DNA of 64,000 nucleotides from an uncultured bacterium (lineage in GTDB: Bacteria > Krumholzibacteriota > Krumholzibacteriia > LZORAL124-64-63): the NCBI GenBank assembly GCA_963727525.1, contig CAVSGO010000003.1:160001-224000 (forward strand). The letters are read 5' to 3'. This document shows, one piece after another, positions 24,326-35,852 of this stretch. Each line of letters begins with the position of its first letter. The first letter of the stretch is position 1. A model generated the notes under the pieces. It saw nothing but the letters and a program-made list of their open reading frames with translations, had not been told where the DNA came from and made no database searches. Position numbers and translations under genes: made by a program.

Positions 24326-25251
24326 TGCAGTTCCTCCAGATACGCCGCGATGTCCGCGGCCTCGTCGACCGTCAGACCCTCGTCGGGCATGTTGCAGTCG
24401 GGCTTGATCTTCTGCGGATCCTGGATCCAGTGCGCGAGGTTCGCGGCGTTGTTCTCGAGCACCCCCGCAGCCAGTGTCTGCCGGGTCGCCACGTGGGTGA
24501 GATCGGGGCCGATGCGCGGGGAGGAGATCCCGCGGACAGCGTGGCAGTTCACGCACGTCCGGGTGCGAAAGAGCTCGGCGCCCCTGTGGCCGGCTGCGCT
24601 GGTTGGCTCCGCCGGCGCGCGCAGCTGCGCCTGGGTCCAGACGTCGTATTGCTGCGGTGTCTCGCCCTGCACGAGGATGCGCATCCAGGCATGCTCGGCG
24701 CCGCAAAACTCGTCGCACGTCCCGCGATAGTTCCCGGGCTCGTCGATGGTCATCCAGAGATACGTGATCCGGTTCGGGAAGACGTCGACCTTGCGTCCGA
24801 GTCGGGGCACCCACCAGTCATGGACGACGTCGCCCGAACGGAAGCGCAGCAGGAGCTTGCGGCCGATCGGCAGGTGGAATTCGTTGGCGACGCGGACGCC
24901 CGTCGCAGGATAGTTGCCTTCCCACCACCACTGATGCGCAGTGACCACGAGGTCCGGCTGACGGTCGCGCACCGGCGGATCGACAGCATGCATGACCCGG
25001 ACGGTCAGCACGAAGAGGCCGACGAGGATGAGGAATGGCAGCACGGTCCAGACCAGCTCGAGCCGCGGATTCCCCTCATCCTGCACCGGCATCGCACCGC
25101 CATCGCGCCTCCGGAAACGGACCACGATCGTGATCACGAGCCCCGTGACGATCAGGAAGATCACGCCGGCCACGAGGAGCACGATCCGGAATAGGCCGAG
25201 GACGTCCTGGGCCTCCGGCGAGCCGGGGTCGATGATCGACGGCGTGGTCAA
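24322..25251 (-). CDS. coxB: Cytochrome c oxidase subunit II with fused cytochrome c (caa3)
   Basis: HQWWW, DVVH, CuA motif CDEFCGAEHAWM, and CVNCH. TTG start with SD gaggga. Confidence 0.92.
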   Translation of the reverse strand: MTTPSIIDPGSPEAQDVLGLFRIVLLVAGVIFLIVTGLVITIVVRFRRRDGGAMPVQDEGNPRLELVWTVLPFLILVGLFVLTVRVMHAVDPPVRDRQPDLVVTAHQWWWEGNYPATGVRVANEFHLPIGRKLLLRFRSGDVVHDWWVPRLGRKVDVFPNRITYLWMTIDEPGNYRGTCDEFCGAEHAWMRILVQGETPQQYDVWTQAQLRAPAEPTSAAGHRGAELFRTRTCVNCHAVRGISSPRIGPDLTHVATRQTLAAGVLENNAANLAHWIQDPQKIKPDCNMPDEGLTVDEAADIAAYLEELQ

Positions 25252-25367
25252 GGGAACGCGCTCCCTCTGTGGTCCATGTGTGATATTGTATGTTCAATTC
25301 ATGTTAAATACAGGATTTCAGTTTGCCAACCGGGAATAAAGCGGCTCGCCACCGCCGCGACACGGAC

Positions 25368-28300
25368 CTAGCCGGAACGCCGTTGCGTCGGCAGGTTTGT
25401 CGCCCGCCCATTCAACGCGTGGTGCGCCTGCAGTCCGCGCACCTTCAGTTCCCAGCCACGCAGCGCCTTGATGCCCGACACCGCGGCCTGCGCGGCCGAG
25501 GTGGTGGTGAGTAACGGCACGCGATGGCGGACAGCGGCGGCGTACATGGCCGACTGGTCGACGTGGGCCTGCTGGCCCAGCGGGGTGTTGATGATGAGGT
25601 CGACGGTGTGGTCCTCGATGAGTTGCACCGTGGTGAGCCCGGGTTGCCCGGCCTTGGCCGCGCGCGTGACGGGCAGGCCCACGCGCTCGAGCGCCATGGC
25701 CGTGCCCTCGGTGGCGTAGAGCTGGAAGCCCATGCGGTGCAGGTCGCGCGCCATCTTGAGGGCGGCCGACTTGTCGTAGTCGTTCACCGTGATCAGCACG
25801 GCGCCCTGCTTGGGCAGCTTCACGCCGGCGGCGAGCTGGGCCTTGGCCAGCGCGTGGCCGAAGCGCGAGGCGTGGCCCATCACCTCGCCGGTGGAGCGCA
25901 TCTCGGGACTCAAGCGCACATCGGCGCCGGGCAGCTTGTCGAACGGCAGCACCACAGCCTTCACGAAGAAGCCGTCAATGGGCGGCGTCTCGACGAATCC
26001 CAGCTCCTGCAGCGTCTTGCCGGCCTGCACCTGCGCCGCGAGCCGCGCCACGGGCACGCCGGTAGCCTTGCTCACGAAGGGAACGGTGCGGCTGGCGCGG
26101 GGATTCACCTCGATCACGAAGACGACGTCGTCCTTGATCGCGTACTGCACGTTCATCAGACCGCGCACGCCGAGGGCGCGGCCGAGGCGCTCGGTGTAAT
26201 CGCGCATGATGCTCAGGTGGTACTGCGAGATCTTGTACGGCGGCAGCACGCAAGCGCTGTCGCCGGAGTGGATACCTGCTTCCTCGATGTGCTGCATCAC
26301 GCCCGCAACGGTGACGTGCGTGCCGTCGCCGACGGCGTCGACGTCGATCTCGTACGCGTCCTCGAGGAACTGGTCGATGAGCACCGGCTGTCCCTCGGCC
26401 ACCCGCGCGGCGCGCTCGAGATAGGTGGCGAGTTGCGTCTCGTCGTAGGCGATGGCCATGGCGCGCCCGCCCAGCACGAATGACGGCCGCACGAGCACCG
26501 GGAAGCCGATGCGCGCGGCGATCTCGCGGGCCTCGGCGAGCGTGGCGGCCATGCCCCACTGCGGGTGGTCGATGTCCAGCTCGCGCAGCAGGGCGCCGAA
26601 GCGGCCGCGGTCCTCGGCCAGGGCGATGGCGTCGGGCGGCGTGCCCCAGACCGGCACGCCCGCGGCGGCGAGGCCCTCGGTGAGGTTGATCGGTGTCTGC
26701 CCGCCGAACTGCACGATCACGCCCTCGGGCTGCTCGAGGTCGACGATGTTGAGCACATCCTCGAGGGTGAGCGGCTCGAAGTAGAGGCGGTCGGCGGTGT
26801 CATAGTCGGTGGAGACGGTCTCGGGATTGCAGTTCACCATGATCGTCTCGAAGCCGAGGTCGGACAGCGCCCAGCACGCCTGCACGCAGCAGTAGTCGAA
26901 CTCGATACCCTGGCCGATACGGTTCGGTCCACCCCCGAGGATCATCACCTTGCGGCGTTCCGAGGGCTGGGCCTCGCAGTCGGGCTCGTAGCAGGAGTAG
27001 AGGTACGGGGTGTGTGCCGCGAACTCGGCGGCACAGGTGTCGACGCGATAGTAGGAGGGCGTGACACCGGCTGCGATGCGCGCCCGCCGGACCTCGAGCT
27101 CGCTCTCCCCTCGCCCGCGGGCGATCACGCGATCGCTGAAGCCGAGGCGTTTGGCGGCCAGAAGGCGCTCCGGCGTCAGCTCGGGCGCGGTGCGTAGCGC
27201 GTCCTCGCCGTCGAGGATGCGCACGAGCTGGGCGACGAACCAGGGGTCGTAACCCGCATCGCGCGCGGCGGCCTCGCCGGCGGCGCGGTCGGCGCCCAGC
27301 AATGCGGCCAGGTGAAAGAGTCGCCCGGCCGTGGGCTTGTGGGCCATTCCCGTTTCGGGCGCGTACCGCGCGGCCAGGTCGCGCGTGAATCCGTCGAGCC
27401 CGATCTCCAGCCCGCGAATGGCCTTGTTGAGCGCCTCGGGAAAGGTGCGACCGATGGCCATGACCTCGCCCACGCTCTTCATCTGCGGGCCGAGCGACGC
27501 ATCCACGCCCGGGAACTTCTCGAAGTTCCAGCGCGGCATCTTCACCACGCAGTAGTCGAGGCTCGGCTCGAAGCTGGCAGGCGTCTCGCGGGTGATGTCG
27601 TTGCGGATCTCGTCGAGCGTGTAGCCCACGGCCACGAGCGCCGCGAGCTTGGCGATGGGGAACCCCGTGGCCTTGCTCGCCAGGGCCGACGAGCGCGACA
27701 CGCGCGGGTTCATCTCGATGATCATGACCTCGCCCGTGCGTGGATCCACGGCGAACTGCACGTTGCTGCCGCCCGTCTGCACGCCGACCACCTGCATGAC
27801 GCGCTTGGCCAGATCGCGCAGGTGCTGCAGCTCGCGATCGGTGAGCGTCTGTGCTGGCGCCACGGTGATGCTGTCGCCGGTGTGCACGCCCATGGGATCG
27901 ACGTTCTCGATCGTGCAGACGACGACGAAGTTGTCGGCGCCGTCGCGCATCACCTCCAGCTCATATTCCTTCCAGCCCAGCAGCGACTTCTCGATGAGCA
28001 CCTCGGTCACCGGACTCTGCCGCAGACCGTGTGCCACCACGCGCTCCAGGTCGGCGGGCGTCTCGATGATCCCGCCGCCTGCACCGCCCAGCGTGCGCGA
28101 CGCGCGCACCAGCGCCGGGTAACCGATCGCGTCGATCGCCGCGCGCGCCTCGTCCACCGTGTGTACGAACGCGCTCGGCGGCACAGGCAGCCCGGCGTCG
28201 ATCATCGCGGCCTTGAATCGCGACCGGTCCTCGGCGATGCGGATGGCCTCGAGGTCGGCCCCGATCATCGCCACCCCGTGCTGCGCCAGCACCCCCGACT

Positions 28301-28610
28301 CGGCGAGTTGCACCGCGAGATTCAACCCCGTCTGGCCGCCCACGGTGGGCAGCAGGGCGTCGGGTTTCTCGGCCTCGATGATCCGCGTCACCAGGCCATC
28401 GGTGAGCGGCTCGACGTAGGTGGCGTCGGCCAGGTCCGGATCGGTCATGATGGTGGCCGGATTCGAGTTCACCAGCACGACGCGGTAGCCCTCGCGCCGC
28501 AGCGCCTTGCAGGCCTGCACGCCGGAGTAATCGAACTCGCACCCCTGCCCGATGGTGATCGGCCCCGAGCCGAGGATGAGGATGGTGCGCAGATCGTCAC
28601 GCCGCGGCAT
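25368..28610 (-). CDS. carB: Carbamoyl-phosphate synthase large subunit
   Basis: MPRRDDL...[17 protein letters not shown], two ATP-grasp halves ([19 protein letters not shown]), and an MGS domain. Confidence 0.97.
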
Positions 28611-28681
28611 GGGTGATCTCCCGGTAGCGTGGACCACGCCCGGGGGCGAATGACGCAAGTATTATATTTTGCATGGACTTG

Positions 28682-28745
28682 AACCTGATTTCGGGCCCGA
28701 GGGAGTGGCCGCGGATCGGCCGCCCGAAGGGCGATATATAGCGCA
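28682..28745 (-). promoter_or_regulatory. Structured leader/promoter element upstream of carB (copy B)
   Basis: 59/64 identical to 34455-34518. Contains GCTATATAT and the nested stems TTCGGGC/GCCCGAA and GGCCG/CGGCC. Confidence 0.7.
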
Positions 28746-28843
28746 TAGGTCGGCGATTATCCAGAGCGTTGTCGTCGCGTGGTCTCGCTCATCGCGCGGA
28801 TTCGTGCATATCGGGACCACGCGCTGGCGGCGCCGCCGGCGAA

Positions 28844-29892
28844 TCACGCGCCGCCATCGCGACGCCGCTGCGGTTCTGCGGTAGGACCGAGGTCTTCCTC
28901 GGCCCCGTGACCGTGTTGACCAGGCCACCACCCCGGCCGTCCGCGCCGGTGCCACAGTCGGTGGCAGGCGCTGCAGAGGGTGATGAGGTTGGCGGGATCG
29001 TTGGTGCCGCCGCGCTCGCGAGGAACGACGTGATGGATCGCGAGGAAGCGGGTGTGCTGACCGCCGGGGGTCCTGCAGCGGTGGCGGTCGCGCGCGAGGA
29101 CCTCGCGGCGGACGCGGGGCGGGATGGTGGTGGTGTTCCTCTCGCCGGGGACCGCGATGGCGGCATCGCATAGCAGGCGCTCGGCGTCCGTGCGCCCGAC
29201 GGGCCGACCACCCGCCTCCACAGCCCCGCACTCGGGGCAGAGGTGGACGTGGATTTGCACTGGTGGGCGCGCCCCCCGGGGGGCGAGTGATTCGCAAGTT
29301 GTTGCAATATTATCACTTGTGTTGTTGTCTGGCTGCCTCCCGCCAGCCAGTGATGCCAGCGCCTCGAGAAGATCCTCGGCGTTGGGCACCGTGCCGAGCC
29401 TTAGCCACAGCTTGTCGTACCGGGCCCTCTGCTCGGCCGTCATACGCATGGAGACCTGCGAGGGGACCTCGGCGGCGAGATCGGCATGTCGCGCGACGTT
29501 CGGCGGCTGATCGTCGGCACGACTGTCGGCACTGTCCAGGAGACTCCCCTGCGCCGCCCGACGGTTCCTCCGCGCCGCCGCCTCGAACCTGGCCTGGGCC
29601 ACCTTGCGATCCAGCTCGCGGCGAGACGACTGCTCGGCCTCGGCGAGCCAGGCGTCCTCGTTGCGTGGCTCGCCACCTTCACCAGCTCGCGCGCCTTGGT
29701 GTAGCCGAGGTCACCGCGAGCGACCGACTCGCGGATTTGCGGCAGTTCCTCGAGCCGCTCGGCGAGGCGCAGGAGGTCGCCCGCGGCGGCCTGCAACCGA
29801 CGATGCACGGTCTCGGCCGGCTGATTGGTCTCGAAAACGGGGTTGTACGGCGGTTCGATGGAGGGACGGTCCGACACGCGGATCATCGGCAT
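28844..29892 (-). pseudogene. Degraded HNH endonuclease-domain protein (DUF222-like)
   Basis: N-terminal fragment LRLAERLEELP...LGYTKARELVKVA, a frameshift near 29665, then VLARDRHRC...IHHVVPRERGGTNDPANLITLCSACH. Confidence 0.75.
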
Positions 29893-30067
29893 GACCTCCC
29901 GGTAGAGGGCGGCCCACGGTGTCCCTGGGCTGCGATGTCAGGTCACAAGAGGCTTCTCATGTCAGATCCGCCTGCAGGCGAAGTGGGCACATCATGGACT
30001 CGGGGTGCGGCGGGCGACGTCGCTGCTCAGATCCACCATGTCGCCACCGAGAACCGGTGCTCCCGGT

Positions 30068-32980
30068 CTACTTCAGCAGCACCATCGCGCGCGTCTCCAC
30101 GTGTCCGGCGGCTTCGAGCCGGTACAGGTAGACGCCCGAGGCTACCACCGATCCGTGTTCGTCCTGGCCACGCCAGACCGCGAGGTGCGCGCCGGCGGCG
30201 ACCGGACCATCGATCAGGCTCGCGACGCGACGGCCGTGCAGGTCGTACACCGCGAGGCGGACATGGCCGGCAGCGCCCACGGCGAAGCGGATCGTGGTGG
30301 ACGGATTGAACGGGTTCGGAGCGTTCTGGGCGAGCACGAGCGGGGCGTCGAGGAGAGGCACGTCCACTGATTGGTCCAGGGTCGCGGTGATCGGGGCGTT
30401 GTCGACATCGCGTGCGATGAGCAGCGTATCGGTGAATGCCACGGCCTCCGAGAGGGTGACGCGCATCAGCTCGCCGGCGCCCGCGATGCCCGCACCGCCG
30501 CCGAGCATCACGAGCGATACGTCGAGGCGGTCGGGCTGCGTGTTGCGCAGGACGTATGGCGACGTCTGGCTGCCCAGCAGCGCGCCCGAGATCACGCTGG
30601 CCGTCACGCCGTTGGGCAGCGTGAAGCCGAAGCGTAGGCCCTTGAGATGGGGCGCGGCCGCCTGCAGTTCCAGGGCCCAGACCGTCGTGTCGACGTGACG
30701 CCAGGCGAGCAGCACGTCGCCGCCCTGAGGCGGCGGTGGCACGGGATCGCCGTAGTTGAGGCCCGCGATCATCACGTCCTCGAAGTCCACCGCGCCATCG
30801 GTGAGGGGGATGCCGTGCCCCGAGGCATCATCCGTCGGACCGAAATCGGCAATGGCGTTGAATACGGTGTCGTCGCGGGTGGTGCCGAACGCCGAGACGA
30901 GCGCGGCGATGTCCAGGGTGTCGACGATGCCGTCCAGCGGGTCGGCGATGTCGCCGAGCTGGTAGTTCGTCGCGCGGGGAGCCTCGGTGGTGCGGGCGCT
31001 CCAGTTGCCCAGCGCATCCCGTGCGAAGGCCTCGTAGGAGTAGACGCCGCGTACGGCGAGCGAGTCGACGTAGGTGCCGTCGGCCGCCGGGAGCGTGGTG
31101 ACGAGGGTCCACGTGGTGTCGGCCACGATCGCGGCATGGTCGGCCGGCCGTACCGGCGGATTGCTGCCGGGCGCGTCGTCGTACAGCGGATAAGCGGAAT
31201 TGCCGTTGCCGTCGCGCCACAGTCCGCGCCAGAGTTCGATCGCCTCGGCATCGTCGGGCACGCCATCATAAGCCACCGTGATGGCGTCGACGCCCGGCGC
31301 CGCCGTCAAGGCGGCGATGGCGTCGGGTGGCAGCACACCCATGACGTCGATGGTGACCAGAGCGGTGTTGCTCACGGCGCCGCCATCGTCGGACACGGTG
31401 TAGGAGAGCGAGTCGTCGCCTGCGAAGCCAGTGGCCGGGGTGTAGGTGATCGCGCCGGAGAGCGTGTCGACGGCAGCGGTGCCGTGCAGCGGCTCGATGA
31501 CTATGGTCACCGAGGCGGGTACGAGCACGCCAACGGCGTCGCTGTCATTGGCGAGCACGTCGATGACCACGGGGACACCGCCGGGCGTGCTGGCCGTATC
31601 TGGCAACGCGATCGGGGCCACGGCGTCGACGCTGTAGAGATAGAACTTCCCGGCATCGAGGTGCAGGGCGGTGTCGTACAGATTGGCCCCCGTGAGGAAA
31701 TCGTCGCGGCCGTCGCCGTTCTGGTCGTCGACGATGGCGGTGTTCGAGCCGAAGCGGTCGGAATCGTGCTCGCCGGTCAGGATGACGTCGGCAAGAGTGT
31801 CGGCCATGGCGGTGCCGGGCGGGTCGCCGCCGAAGAAGACGAAGGTGCGGCCGGGGCCGAAGCCGCCGGTGTCGGGCGTGGGCGCGCCGATCACCAGGTC
31901 ATCGCGGCCGTCGCCGTTGAGGTCGCCGGCGCCGGAAACCGCGCGGCCGAAGATGCCGCGGTACGTGGTGCCTGTGTAGACGAGATCGGGCAGGCCATCG
32001 GCACCCGGTCCACCGAAGTAGACGTCGGCGCGGCCGGCATCGAACCCGCCGGAGTCGTTGTGCATGTCGCCGATGATCACGTCGGCGAATCCATCGCCAT
32101 TCACGTCGCCGGCCGGCGCGACACAGTATCCGAAACGGTCGCTGCCGGAGTCGCCGGTGAAGATCAGGTCCGCGACACCGTCGAAGTCCGGCCCACCAGA
32201 AAAGAGGTAGGCCTGCGTCAGCGTGTTGCCGCCGACGAGCACGTCGGGCCAGCCGTCGCCATCGAAGTCGCCGGCCGCGCTGACGGACCATCCGAGAAAG
32301 CCGTTCTCCGGTACGGAAAGGGTGACGTCTACGGAATCGTCGAGCGCCGTGCCACCGAACACCACGTACGCGCGCCCATCGGCCGAGGTGCCCGCCGGCG
32401 CCCCGATGACGAGATCGTCGCCACCACCGTTGATATCACCCGGCCCGGCCACCGACCAGCCGAAGTACGCGAACGGAGCGGGGCCGGTGATCACCAGATC
32501 CGGCACGTCATCGATCGTCGGGCCGCCGAAATACACGTACACGCGGCCGGCATTGAGTCCGCCCGCATCAAACTTCGGCGCACCGACGACGATGTCATTC
32601 CAGCCGTCGCCGTCCACGTCGCCACACCCGCGAACCGAGGTTCCGAAGGCGTCGCCGGCAAACTCGCCGCTCAGCACGAGGTCGGGCGTATCGTCGTGGC
32701 CGGGGCCTCCGAAGTAGACCCAGGCCTGGCCCGCGCTCACGCCGCTGTGCCGTGCGCCAGGCGCACCCACGACGAAGTCGCCGACGCCGTCGCCATTGAC
32801 GTCACCCGCGGCGCTGAGAAAGAGTCCCAGCCCGGCGCTGTCGTTCTGTCCCGTGGCCGACAGGATCTCGGTGACCGGCACCGCGCTCGCCGTCATCGCC
32901 AGGACGCCGATGGCGACACCCAGGAACGACGCCGAAGCGATGCGACCACACGTATGCAGTCGCGTGATATGGCTCACCAT
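30068..32980 (-). CDS. FG-GAP repeat protein with Ig-like, dockerin-like and FlgD-Ig/T9SS-like domains
   Basis: About 7 repeats of FG.SV...GD.NGDG..D..VGAP; IDVLAND Ig-like; C-terminus QNAPNPFNP...RAMVLLK. Confidence 0.88.
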   Translation of the reverse strand: MVSHITRLHTCGRIASASFLGVAIGVLAMTASAVPVTEILSATGQNDSAGLGLFLSAAGDVNGDGVGDFVVGAPGARHSGVSAGQAWVYFGGPGHDDTPDLVLSGEFAGDAFGTSVRGCGDVDGDGWNDIVVGAPKFDAGGLNAGRVYVYFGGPTIDDVPDLVITGPAPFAYFGWSVAGPGDINGGGDDLVIGAPAGTSADGRAYVVFGGTALDDSVDVTLSVPENGFLGWSVSAAGDFDGDGWPDVLVGGNTLTQAYLFSGGPDFDGVADLIFTGDSGSDRFGYCVAPAGDVNGDGFADVIIGDMHNDSGGFDAGRADVYFGGPGADGLPDLVYTGTTYRGIFGRAVSGAGDLNGDGRDDLVIGAPTPDTGGFGPGRTFVFFGGDPPGTAMADTLADVILTGEHDSDRFGSNTAIVDDQNGDGRDDFLTGANLYDTALHLDAGKFYLYSVDAVAPIALPDTASTPGGVPVVIDVLANDSDAVGVLVPASVTIVIEPLHGTAAVDTLSGAITYTPATGFAGDDSLSYTVSDDGGAVSNTALVTIDVMGVLPPDAIAALTAAPGVDAITVAYDGVPDDAEAIELWRGLWRDGNGNSAYPLYDDAPGSNPPVRPADHAAIVADTTWTLVTTLPAADGTYVDSLAVRGVYSYEAFARDALGNWSARTTEAPRATNYQLGDIADPLDGIVDTLDIAALVSAFGTTRDDTVFNAIADFGPTDDASGHGIPLTDGAVDFEDVMIAGLNYGDPVPPPPQGGDVLLAWRHVDTTVWALELQAAAPHLKGLRFGFTLPNGVTASVISGALLGSQTSPYVLRNTQPDRLDVSLVMLGGGAGIAGAGELMRVTLSEAVAFTDTLLIARDVDNAPITATLDQSVDVPLLDAPLVLAQNAPNPFNPSTTIRFAVGAAGHVRLAVYDLHGRRVASLIDGPVAAGAHLAVWRGQDEHGSVVASGVYLYRLEAAGHVETRAMVLLK

Positions 32981-33335
32981 GGTGACTCACTTCGTTGAAA
33001 TAGACTGGTCCGGGTCCCCGTCCCGGATGCATGACTATCAGACGCTCATGGTACCGGATCGGCAAGTCCATTCCGGACTCTGTTGTGCCGCTCCGGTCAT
33101 GGTCGCGGAAGGCCAGGCGCCGGTATGCCATGCAAGTAGTTCTCATTCCGTGAATTGTCGGTGTCGCCGGTGCGCTTTCGCGATCGTGGCCGGACCCGCG
33201 GCGCGGCGCACTCTCGCTCTTGCTCCAGCTTTCCCGGACTGCACGCGTTGACCACGATGATGCGCCAGCAAGCTGGACCCGCGCGCGCGGCGCCCGGTCA
33301 CTCGATCGATGGGCAGGGGCGCTCGGGCCGAATGA

Positions 33336-34448
33336 CTACGCGGAGGCGGTTGCCTTCTCCGGCGGCTGATTCATCAGGTGGATGAATTCGTCGAAGTAGC
33401 GGTACGAGTCGTGCGGGCCGGGCGCGCTCTCGGGATGGTACTGCACCGCGAAGGCTCGCAGGTGCGGGGCGGCGAGTCCCTCGCAGCACCCGTCGCTGAG
33501 GTTGATCAGCGTGGGCACCACGCCGACGGGCAGCGACCGCGACTCCACTGCGAAGCCGTGGTTGTGGGCAGAGATCTCCACCGTACCGCCGTCGACGCCG
33601 CGCACCGGCTGGTTGCCGCCACGGTGGCCGAACTTGAGCTTGTAGGTCCGCGCACCGAGCGCGAGGGCGAGGATCTGGTGCCCCAGGCAGATGCCGAATA
33701 TGGGGATCCGCCCGAGCAGCTCGCGCACGTGCGCGATGGCATAGCTCACTGCGGCCGGGTCGCCGGGGCCGTTGCTGAGGAACACGCCGTGTGGCCGGGC
33801 GGCGAGGACCGCGGCGGCCGGCGTCGATGCCGGCACCACGGTGACGCGGCAGCCGCGCGCGGCGAGAAGGCGCAGGATGTTGCGCTTGATGCCATAGTCG
33901 TATGCCACCACGTGGAGCGGCGCGGCGCCGTCGCCCCACTCGTACGGTTCCTGGCAGGTGACCTCGCGCACAAGGTCGAGGCCGCTCATGTCGCGCGTGG
34001 CGCGAGCCATCGCCACGAGCCGCTCGGGATCGGCGTCGACCGTCGCGATCGCTGCGCGCATCGCTCCGCGTTCGCGAATGTGTCGGACAAGGGCGCGCGT
34101 GGACACATCGGTGATGCCCGGCACGTCGTGCTCGCGCAACCAGCCGTCGAGATCGCCCGTCGCCCGCCAGTTGCTCACCACGGGACTCAGATCACGCACC
34201 ACGACGGCGCTCGCCCAGATGCTGGCGCTCTCGTCGTCGTCATCGTTCACGCCGGTGTTGCCCACGTGGGTGGCGGTGAGAGTGACGAGCTGGCCATGGT
34301 ACGAGGGGTCAGTGAGGATCTCCTGATAACCGGTGAGGCTCGTGTTGAAGACGATCTCGCCCGTCGCTTCGCAGGTCGCGCCGAAGCCACGCCCCGGCCA
34401 GATGGAACCGTCCTCGAGGGCGAGCAGCGCTGGTCGTGATTCTCGCAT
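33336..34448 (-). CDS. carA: Carbamoyl-phosphate synthase small subunit
   Basis: [41 protein letters not shown]. Confidence 0.97.
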
Positions 34449-34454
34449 GCACTC

Positions 34455-34518
34455 AACCTGAATTCGGGCCCGCAGGAGTGGCCGCGGATCGGCCGCCCGA
34501 AGGCAGATATATAGCGCA
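34455..34518 (-). promoter_or_regulatory. Structured leader/promoter element upstream of carA (copy A)
   Basis: 59/64 identical to 28682-28745; ends 7 nt before the carA ATG. Confidence 0.7.
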
Positions 34519-34878
34519 ACGGTCGGAGCTTGAAAAGAGGCGAATAGGAATCGGGACTATTTGACTCTTTTTCGCCCGACCGCTGCTGGTAGGCTGGGTC
34601 CGGCGCCATCGGAACCTACACTCATGTCGGCGGAGAGTTCACGAACACGGGCCAGCTGGCCGTCGAATTCGGCTCGGGGCTCACGATCACCGGCGGCGCG
34701 ATCGCCGGGAACTTCACGCAGGTCGGTTTCCCGCCGGGGAGTGGTCCTGGGGTATTACGGGTACGCCCCCTTCCGTCACAGAGCCCAAGGTGGAGCGACC
34801 CCTGCGATATCATCGGCGCGGCCGGGACCACCGGCTGCCCGTCGGCGCCACGCTGCTTCGACCATCGTGAGGGTTCCC

Positions 34879-35847
34879 ATGGCGACGCTGAGTGCGATAC
34901 TCGATCACTACGACCGTAGCGCGTTTCGACCTGATGCCCCGCAGGCATTCGCCAACCAGCACAGGAAACTCGACGTGCTGGGCTCGGGGGCTTCCGGGTC
35001 GATCGCGGTGAGAGTGTTCAAGTACCACATGAACACCGACGACCCCCGCGGTGGCGTCGACCCGGCGGGAAGAATCAGTAATACAGGCTCCATGGATGAG
35101 TTCAGGGACGCCCGCGGTCCCATCGAGTCCTGGGTCCGGACCGCGAGTGCTGACGAGGGTGCGGCCGGTACGCGGGCCCGAACGAGACTCGCGGCCTTGC
35201 AGATGATCTCGGCGTCCGGCGCAGCCCCCGTGCGGTTGCGGCGGGTCTTCCTGGGGAAGGGATCACCACGGGATATCGCTCTGGCACTTTCGCTGCTTGC
35301 GCACAGCGGCCTCGTGGCGCGGCACCATCCCGGCAGCGCGGAAAAGGTGGCCCTGCAGCAGTATGCCGACCGCTACATGGGTGTCGATTGCAGCGGTTTC
35401 GTGAACAACTACTTCACGGCCATCGGCCGCCGCGCTCACGACCTCGTGGATCGTCCCGGCATTTCGACCTACGCGAGACCGGGGCGTCGTCTGCGCACGA
35501 TTCCGGGATCGCCGCGCAACCATGTCTTCTGCTGGTTGAAAGGCGAGTCGCGCACGAGCGCGCGGCCGCACCATCTGGCGGAATTCTCCCACATCGTCCT
35601 GGTCGACGACTGGGTGTCGCCACCTGGTGCGAATGGCGATCCCGTGCATGCGGTGCTGCGAGTCTCCCAGTCGGGGTCGAGCCTGGGCGGTATCTGCACG
35701 GGCCTGTACGAGATCCTCCGGGCGCCCGCAGCCACGGACGCCCGCTGCACCTGGCGGATCCGTCGCCTCGCGCACGGAGGCGACTTCAATCTGAATCCGA
35801 CGCCTCCGACGGCCTGGAACGAGGTGTTCCTGGCGCCACCCGTCTAG
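34879..35847 (+). CDS. Hypothetical protein with NlpC/P60-like Cys-His motif
   Basis: YMGVDCSGFV followed later by SHIVLV; no evident signal peptide. Confidence 0.55.
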   Translation: MATLSAILDHYDRSAFRPDAPQAFANQHRKLDVLGSGASGSIAVRVFKYHMNTDDPRGGVDPAGRISNTGSMDEFRDARGPIESWVRTASADEGAAGTRARTRLAALQMISASGAAPVRLRRVFLGKGSPRDIALALSLLAHSGLVARHHPGSAEKVALQQYADRYMGVDCSGFVNNYFTAIGRRAHDLVDRPGISTYARPGRRLRTIPGSPRNHVFCWLKGESRTSARPHHLAEFSHIVLVDDWVSPPGANGDPVHAVLRVSQSGSSLGGICTGLYEILRAPAATDARCTWRIRRLAHGGDFNLNPTPPTAWNEVFLAPPV

Positions 35848-35852
35848 CCCGC

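Follow-up and report, generated by a model that had tools for sequence, protein, structure and literature searches.

A PyrR-binding attenuator or operator controls pyr and car genes in many bacteria, and by consensus its binding site is a hairpin that bears a bulge of the UUUAA type and a loop of the GAGAG type. In Escherichia coli, the carP1 and carP2 promoters respond to uridine triphosphate (UTP)-sensitive reiterative transcription, ArgR and RutR/PepA/IHF/PyrH. The two car genes are split in Neisseria gonorrhoeae and also in Pseudomonas, where an open reading frame (ORF) lies between carA and carB. Here we analyse a 64,000-nt stretch of DNA from an uncultured Krumholzibacteriota bacterium (the window; contig CAVSGO010000003.1, positions 160,001 to 224,000), in which a 64-nt, hairpin-bearing repeat precedes both carA and carB, the genes for the small subunit and the large subunit of carbamoyl-phosphate synthase (CPSase). 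A preliminary description of this DNA had offered two alternatives: a new riboswitch, protein-binding or nucleoside triphosphate (NTP)-sensing leader, or a promoter copied when the operon was split. The second is supported in the form of a copied carA 5' region, its promoter function itself being a prediction only, and the first found no support. We conclude that the repeat is probably the control region at the 5' end of carA, which would have come to be present in two copies through the splitting of an ancestral operon with overlapping carA and carB, and that it looks like the product of an ordinary rearrangement, not like a new riboswitch.

The two copies, 28682-28745 and 34455-34518 (minus strand in the sense reading, 28745-28682 and 34518-34455), are identical at 59 of 64 positions, share one orientation and each lie upstream of a car gene, as first described, and the similarity is wider than was then stated. 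It covers 83 nt with 73/83 identities and a single 1-nt gap (blastn E 1.4e-23; coordinates in Table 1), a block that opens with CCGACC about 7 nt before GCGCTATATAT, spans the hairpin and CAGGTT, and closes with the carA start codon (ATGC); the 5' limit of the repeat lies about 20-25 nt upstream of the TATATAT box. Mismatches are interspersed between identical tracts of 6, 13, 29, 10, 7, 3 and 5 nt, the 29 perfectly conserved nucleotides forming the core. Within the 64 nt, the five mismatches fall at positions 14, 15, 45, 46 and 57, none of them in the stems TTCGGGC/GCCCGAA and GGCCG/CGGCC, and 13 of the 15 loop positions of the hairpin are identical as well. The sequence that follows the hairpin reads AAUCAGG or AUUCAGG.

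Across the 4.66-Mb genome, BLAST places the repeat at these two sites only, each before a car gene. The next best match is 24 nt long (E 0.22), and the 18 further matches are 14-29 nt long with E of at least 0.22; eight weak BLAST or covariance-model matches that we examined all lie within long open frames. The repeat is far beyond chance, and it is not a dispersed repeat: a REP- or MITE-like element, with many copies before unrelated genes, is ruled out by the finding of two copies, both before car genes. The preliminary description had named copies scattered before unrelated genes as the mark of a generic repeat, and none came to light in the search for further copies.

The evidence that carries our reading lies just past the copied start codon. 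With the register fixed by the repeat, the 61 nt beyond the copied ATG were compared, ungapped, with carA codons 2-21, and they agree at 29 of 61 positions, against 16.1 +/- 3.6 in 80 other registers (maximum 26). A codon-phase-preserving shuffle gives p 2.6e-4 for this match, and among 1432 in-frame 61-mers taken from carA and carB no other does as well as the in-register pair. Homology runs in register into the coding sequence of the parent carA, as in a duplicated gene 5' region. Because of this in-register match, the carB-side copy is, as far as sequence can tell, a decayed carA 5' end. Upstream of the 83-nt block no residual similarity signal was found (26/80; other registers 13-29), and from this limit together with the in-register relic the copied segment would therefore have started near position -25, counted from the TATATAT box, and reached codon 15-20 of carA or beyond.

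The two parts of the copy have fared very differently. The coding relic is, by its identity to carA, decayed close to saturation (29/61, 48%), whereas the non-coding block is 88% identical (73/83; Fisher p 2.3e-7), and identity falls immediately past the start codon, from 73/83 up to ATGC to 16 of the next 30 nt. This contrast, with its drop directly after the start codon, suggests that the non-coding block is under constraint, with purifying selection acting on the leader and initiation region.

Gene order in relatives points the same way. A search for carA in 40 further family genomes, with E up to 1e-60 as the limit, found it in 23, and in 22 of these 23 (all but G032) carB starts no more than 110 nt from the point where the carA alignment stops. 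In this genome there is no carB within 1.5 kb downstream of carA, and from the carA stop it is 4725 bp to the start of carB. Because carB directly follows carA in 22 of 23 relatives, the carA-carB split is, on this comparison, a derived state. The nearest genera with both genes on one contig (G007, G010, G033 and G011; 65-76% identity in CarA, 77-80% in CarB) show what the earlier arrangement may have been, as in 4/4 the carA frame ends at a TGA 10 nt inside carB (...CAT GCC nnG GCG TGA). Here carA stops at TAG and does not overlap carB, and it is a relic ORF, opening at the vestigial carA ATG, that ends 10 nt past the carB ATG, in the same frame relative to carB as carA has in the relatives. 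The locus is thus like the overlapping operon of the nearest genera in the relic ORF, with its carA initiation region and the same TGA 10 nt inside carB, and unlike it in that the body of carA is absent from the carB-side copy, where 25 decayed codons are left, while the complete carA, preceded by its own leader copy, is found 4.7 kb upstream. With the split carA and carB genes of other bacteria it shares subunit genes parted by unrelated DNA; we know of no report of a carA 5' region with its start codon copied before carB, and narrow literature searches showed none. Because the copy before carB holds the carA ATG and an in-register relic, we read it as copied carA expression signals, and the earlier suggestion of a promoter copied at an operon split gains support from gene order (22/23), overlap (4/4) and this ATG with its relic.

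We suggest the following course of events. In an ancestral operon the carA stop would have overlapped the carB start, and the operon would have been split by about 4.7 kb that include a multi-copy HNH endonuclease gene and a gene for an FG-GAP protein with a type IX secretion system (T9SS) tail. The carA upstream region, start codon and first ~20 codons would have been copied before carB; the coding part of this copy would then have decayed, and the non-coding block would have been kept by purifying selection. The kept block would give carB the same signals as carA, namely a transcription start and/or a 5' leader with a translation initiation region, so that the two subunits of one enzyme would be co-expressed after the split. 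The copy may start transcription, a predicted promoter role, or may act as leader and initiation region only. Ribosomes starting at the vestigial carA ATG would translate the 25-codon relic ORF and stop at the TGA 10 nt inside carB, which would reproduce the stop/start overlap, and so the translational coupling, of the relatives; the arrangement fits retained coupling from relic ORF to carB, although it is no proof of it. As for the hairpin, it would be a generic part of the 5' leader that affects how stable the mRNA 5' end is or how accessible the adjacent CAGG ribosome-binding site is. Such a generic role seems most likely, and a ligand- or protein-specific switch less likely. Beyond carA and carB there is no synteny with the four relatives, which have no flanking gene in common with this locus, and no repeat delimits a mobile unit; therefore the order of the rearrangement steps is not reconstructable.

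Several observations weigh against this reading or against parts of it. The first concern the promoter. A scan with a simple consensus rule (-35 and -10 hexamers 16-18 nt apart, 9/12 matches, with A as the second and T as the sixth base of the -10) called 0 sigma-70-type sites in either copy, a result that leaves room for a weaker or different promoter. TATATAT is no consensus -10, because it cannot supply that A and that T at once, and the two copies differ in their -35 region, which the conserved block does not include, so that promoter function is unproven. Between carA and carB, which are co-oriented, there is no terminator-like site, and therefore carB may be transcribed by read-through. 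Translational coupling meets its own difficulties: the openness of the relic ORF is not significant, as 52% of shuffles are open too (P 0.52), and we reject it as evidence; the TGA of the relic ORF is dictated by conserved carB codons for MPRRD; and carB has its own GGGAG, 7 nt upstream of its ATG, so that coupling may be dispensable. Additionally, the loops of the hairpin are kept as well as the stems (13/15), which a purely structural 5' hairpin would not need. Finally, gene conversion between the copies could mimic purifying selection, although conversion gives no reason for a boundary at the ATG.

Within the relic, positions 28657-28670 (minus strand) form, in a genome of 67% GC, a 14-nt, almost pure A/T run, AAAATATAATACTT, with a perfect TATAAT at 28666-28661. 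The carA sequence in register with it is GAGAATCACGACCA, so the changes in the relic are toward A/T. This run may serve carB as a second start site or provide the relic ORF with an unstructured zone; no partner at -35 was found for the TATAAT. The heptamer TATATAT by itself is uninformative in this genome (43 sites observed, 32 expected). Many of its sites cluster in strongly AT-rich sequence at about 760-812 kb of contig C5, which suggests a large island of different composition. A box like GCGCTATATAT, reading GCGCGCTATAAG, stands about 100 nt upstream of carA in one relative (G003, locus L028), and the leader that follows it is unrelated.

Table 1. The car genes of the window, the genes between them and the parts of the two repeat copies (positions in the window; aa, amino acids)
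Feature	Position	Strand	Remarks
carA-side copy of the 83-nt block	34445..34526	-	CCGACC, then GCTATATAT at 34515-34507
carA-side hairpin	outer stem 5' arm 34501-34495; inner GGCCG-ATCCG-CGGCC 34494-34480; outer stem 3' arm 34469-34463	-	
carA-side CAGGTT, then carA ATG	34460-34455; 34448-34446	-	
carA, CPSase small subunit	33336..34448	-	370 aa, full length; Pfam CPSase_sm_chain 1e-49, GATase 2.5e-48
Inserted gene 1, FG-GAP/Big_9 repeat protein with T9SS-type C-terminal sorting domain	30068..32980	-	970 aa
Inserted gene 2, HNH endonuclease	28844..29602	-	252 aa; Pfam HNH 2e-11
carB-side copy of the 83-nt block	28671..28753	-	CCGACC, then GCTATATAT at 28742-28734
carB-side hairpin	outer stem 5' arm 28728-28722; inner hairpin 28721-28707; outer stem 3' arm 28696-28690	-	
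carB-side CAGGTT, then vestigial carA ATG	28687-28682; 28674-28672	-	
Upstream ORF of 25 codons	28597..28674	-	Translation of 25 letters not shown; vestigial carA ATG to TGA 10 nt inside carB
Putative decayed remnant of carA codons 2-21	28611..28671	-	In-register identity to 34445-34385
carB, CPSase large subunit	25368..28610	-	1080 aa; Pfam

All four genes (carA, the FG-GAP gene, the HNH gene and carB) lie on the minus strand, and the sole terminator-like site on this strand within 25000-35000 is at 25358-25341, after carB. The FG-GAP protein is recognised by Pfam FG-GAP (3e-33), Big_9 and FlgD_ig and by NCBIfam Por_Secre_tail (23.4 bits against a cut-off of 23); the carAB neighbours in four relatives gave short (76-109 aa), domain-level matches to it only. 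In the HNH protein, an IscB match is confined to the HNH part (52.7 bits against a cut-off of 175), and the N-terminal 160 aa have no family match. This family is multi-copy, with 4 matches in this genome and 12 in G011. The three other relatives here (C7:329073-329708, C2:87236-87838 and C7:181658-182173) are 40-46% identical, and one genomic relative is a pseudogene with 3 internal stop codons (2 TGA and 1 TAG).

Compared with the PyrR system, the element here occupies the same place as the attenuator or translational operator (RF00515), directly after the presumed start site and before the ribosome-binding site of carA, and differs in that the car leaders have no UUUAA bulge, no GAGAG-type loop and no downstream terminator. 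A match to the PyrR site in these leaders was lacking at E up to 10 in searches of 6.4 kb, 191 nt and 161 nt, and an intrinsic-terminator attenuator was likewise lacking, with 0 terminator-like sites in 28550-28900 and 34400-34700. The Rfam, motif and terminator scans thus agree with the preliminary description, which had seen neither a PyrR loop nor a U-tract terminator. The genome has a gene for PyrR itself (251 bits; cut-off 138), and a genome-wide search for its motif returned one site, upstream of pyrR. As a positive control of the same genome, this pyrR-leader site reached 22.4 bits with the Rfam PyrR model (E 0.34), below the gathering score of 54.

At that site (C7:114984-115090, about 1372-1461 of locus L035) a PyrR-type hairpin is followed by a GC hairpin with a T8 run, upstream of pyrR at C7:115109-115633, and a promoter-like pair, TTGCCC-17-TATGCT, lies upstream of the hairpin. 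Distant family members resemble the PyrR system in a PyrR-like hairpin (CCTTTAATCG..GAGAGCCCGAAAGG) that, by eye, abuts the carA ATG. Upstream of carA in G012, G008 and G031 (L021, L025 and L031), a PyrR-like hairpin, CCTTTAATCG..G.GAGCCCGAAAGG, abuts or overlaps the carA ribosome-binding site; L025 and L031 also carry a TTGACA-17-TAACCT pair upstream of it. These hairpins of distant relatives were judged by eye against the consensus, and Rfam made no call at E up to 0.1.

The carP1/carP2 control region of E. coli carAB is like this one in lying upstream of the genes for the same enzyme and in opening with an AT-rich box. It is unlike it in that two tandem promoters there precede one operon, whereas here one region is copied before each gene. 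A search of this genome (96.7% complete) with the ArgR C-terminal domain, PF02863, found no match with E up to 0.01, and ARG boxes were judged by eye only; a control search with the same domain found it in 8/14 reference genomes. Reiterative, UTP-sensitive control of the carP1 type depends on at least three consecutive T in the initially transcribed region, according to one study (PMC6245113). Only TT lies between the TATATAT box and the hairpin, the presumed initially transcribed region, in which the locus would again differ from E. coli carAB.

The rival that survives best is that the ~45-nt nested hairpin is a lineage-specific cis-regulatory RNA which binds a metabolite or a protein, acts at CAGG or on mRNA stability and serves both car genes, so that the duplication spread a sensor and not just a promoter. 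In its fullest form, a genus-specific riboregulator would have replaced the PyrR site and been copied with the carA initiation region, its signal being passed to carB by relic-ORF coupling. We consider the RNA sensor unlikely, and this fuller version of it equally so. The 29-nt perfect core and the 13/15 identical loop positions, beside a 48% relic, do speak for it, as does the position of the hairpin, which sits where distant family members carry a PyrR-like site before carA. The hairpin also ends 3 nt before CAGG, and CC on the 5' side of the stem could extend pairing to the GG of CAGG. All differences avoid the 24 paired positions (hypergeometric p 0.086 for 5 in 64 nt, 0.026 for 10 in 83 columns); that the five mismatches of the 64 nt spare both stems was correctly noted at the outset, yet at p 0.086 over 64 nt it is weak evidence.

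Against such a sensor stand the folding and the homologue searches. Relative to dinucleotide shuffles the two leaders fold at z -0.54 and -0.91 (four stretches gave -0.54, -0.91, -0.46 and +0.31), and 0/12 pairs vary between the two copies, so the proposed covariation check yielded no covarying pair, nor did the family supply a homologue to add. The proposed Rfam search for PyrR and other motifs fared no better. The whole window gave no relevant match at gathering thresholds, and the 6.4-kb, 191-nt and 161-nt searches, at E up to 10, gave chance-level matches only (miRNA, snoRNA, DUF3800-III at 13 bits, ncS011 at 7.7 bits), all of which we dismissed; twelve relatives' carA loci gave nothing at E up to 0.1. 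Among the six nearest genera the leader of carA has a different sequence, and a multiple alignment and single folds show no common architecture; none reaches z <=-2 against shuffles (range -1.43 to +0.99).

A covariance model built from the two copies (R1) was run over 91 family genomes, this one included. It found no credible homologue in the 90 others; 72 of the 91 genomes have some match at E up to 1, which represents noise, and its 11 best matches outside this genome all lie in long open frames. Several of these are antisense to a conserved coding motif, with L132, L133 and L137 antisense to ...EEHFNLISALHKSLRNSD...; L135 and L136 are almost identical DNA, and L140 lies in a tRNA-ligase-like frame. 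BLAST of a 101-nt element in 60 relatives produced no credible homologue, only one 29-nt match in G001 (E 0.008), which R1 saw again at 19 bits (E 0.11). A pattern scan for the strict nested stems, in one genome for each of 185,579 species (the window's own record possibly left out), gave 8 matches; their genomes belong to unrelated phyla, and the matches differ in their spacers and are flanked by unrelated sequence. In a metagenome scan with CarA the best 80 loci were at most 62% identical, with no close relative among them. No second species of this genus is in the collection, so the covariation check covered the two copies of this genome. A riboswitch-type RNA has no support: the first alternative of the preliminary description is left without an Rfam match, unusual stability, covariation or a homologue outside this genome. 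If the hairpin were a specific sensor after all, carbamoyl-phosphate synthesis would have in it a regulator of narrow scope, restricted to this lineage.

The same core could instead be a DNA operator: a repressor binding the nested inverted repeats (GGCCG-N5-CGGCC within TTCGGGC-N25-GCCCGAA), just past the putative start site, would control the transcription of carA and carB together. The inverted-repeat symmetry is fully conserved in both copies, loop and spacer bases are kept, as expected of a DNA site contacted by protein, and the RNA folding energy is unexceptional. However, the absence of any further genomic copy leaves no visible regulon beyond the car genes, the one candidate domain sought, that of ArgR, was not found, and no recognisable regulator gene adjoins either copy in Pfam and NCBIfam searches. 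Such GC-rich inverted repeats are also common in DNA of 67% GC, as the nested pattern in the eight unrelated genomes illustrates. We regard an operator as quite improbable.

Very improbable, too, is that the carB-side copy is a functionless scar, kept similar by occasional gene conversion, with carB expressed by read-through and from its own GGGAG. Several findings already given would suit it: no promoter was called in the carB-side copy, all genes lie on one strand with no terminator-like site between carA and carB, and carB has a Shine-Dalgarno sequence of its own. The longest identical tract, at 29 nt, is near the length needed for recombination. However, high identity ends at the start codon, a limit that conversion has no reason to respect; the mismatches are interspersed and do not flank one single tract; and the relic adjoining the block was not refreshed.

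That a mobile element has its ends or attachment sites in the two copies, or that they belong to a dispersed repeat family, we regard as next to impossible: they do bracket, as direct repeats, a 5.8-kb unit that holds an HNH gene of a multi-copy family, but there are only two genomic copies, no nucleotide repeats around the other HNH copies delimit a mobile unit, the bracketed unit contains essential carA itself, the GC content of the insert (0.68-0.70) is like that of its surroundings, and the repeat is the 5' region of carA, coding sequence included.

If the repeat is a copied carA 5' region, as we favour, this locus would be a natural example of two-subunit co-expression rescued after an operon break by copying the 5' region of the first gene before the second. 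The decayed coding relic would serve as an internal clock, against which the non-coding part is seen to have been kept. The locus also carries a warning for annotation: a repeated structured leader before two functionally linked genes can be a paralogous copy, and identity between paralogous leader copies says nothing on RNA structure.

Some minor observations concern the surroundings of carA here and in relatives. The ~1.3 kb upstream of carA (34520-35850) contain no convincing gene; a 428-aa plus-strand ORF at 34561-35847 is without a Pfam or NCBIfam match, and its third-position GC is 0.74 against 0.85-0.87 in the neighbouring genes. In two relatives (G003, contig C477, L028; G011, contig C38, L029/L034) carA was matched in two segments, about residues 3-176 and 165-366, and the G003 gene has one internal TAA; these two-segment genes may reflect a frameshift, an assembly error or a broken gene.

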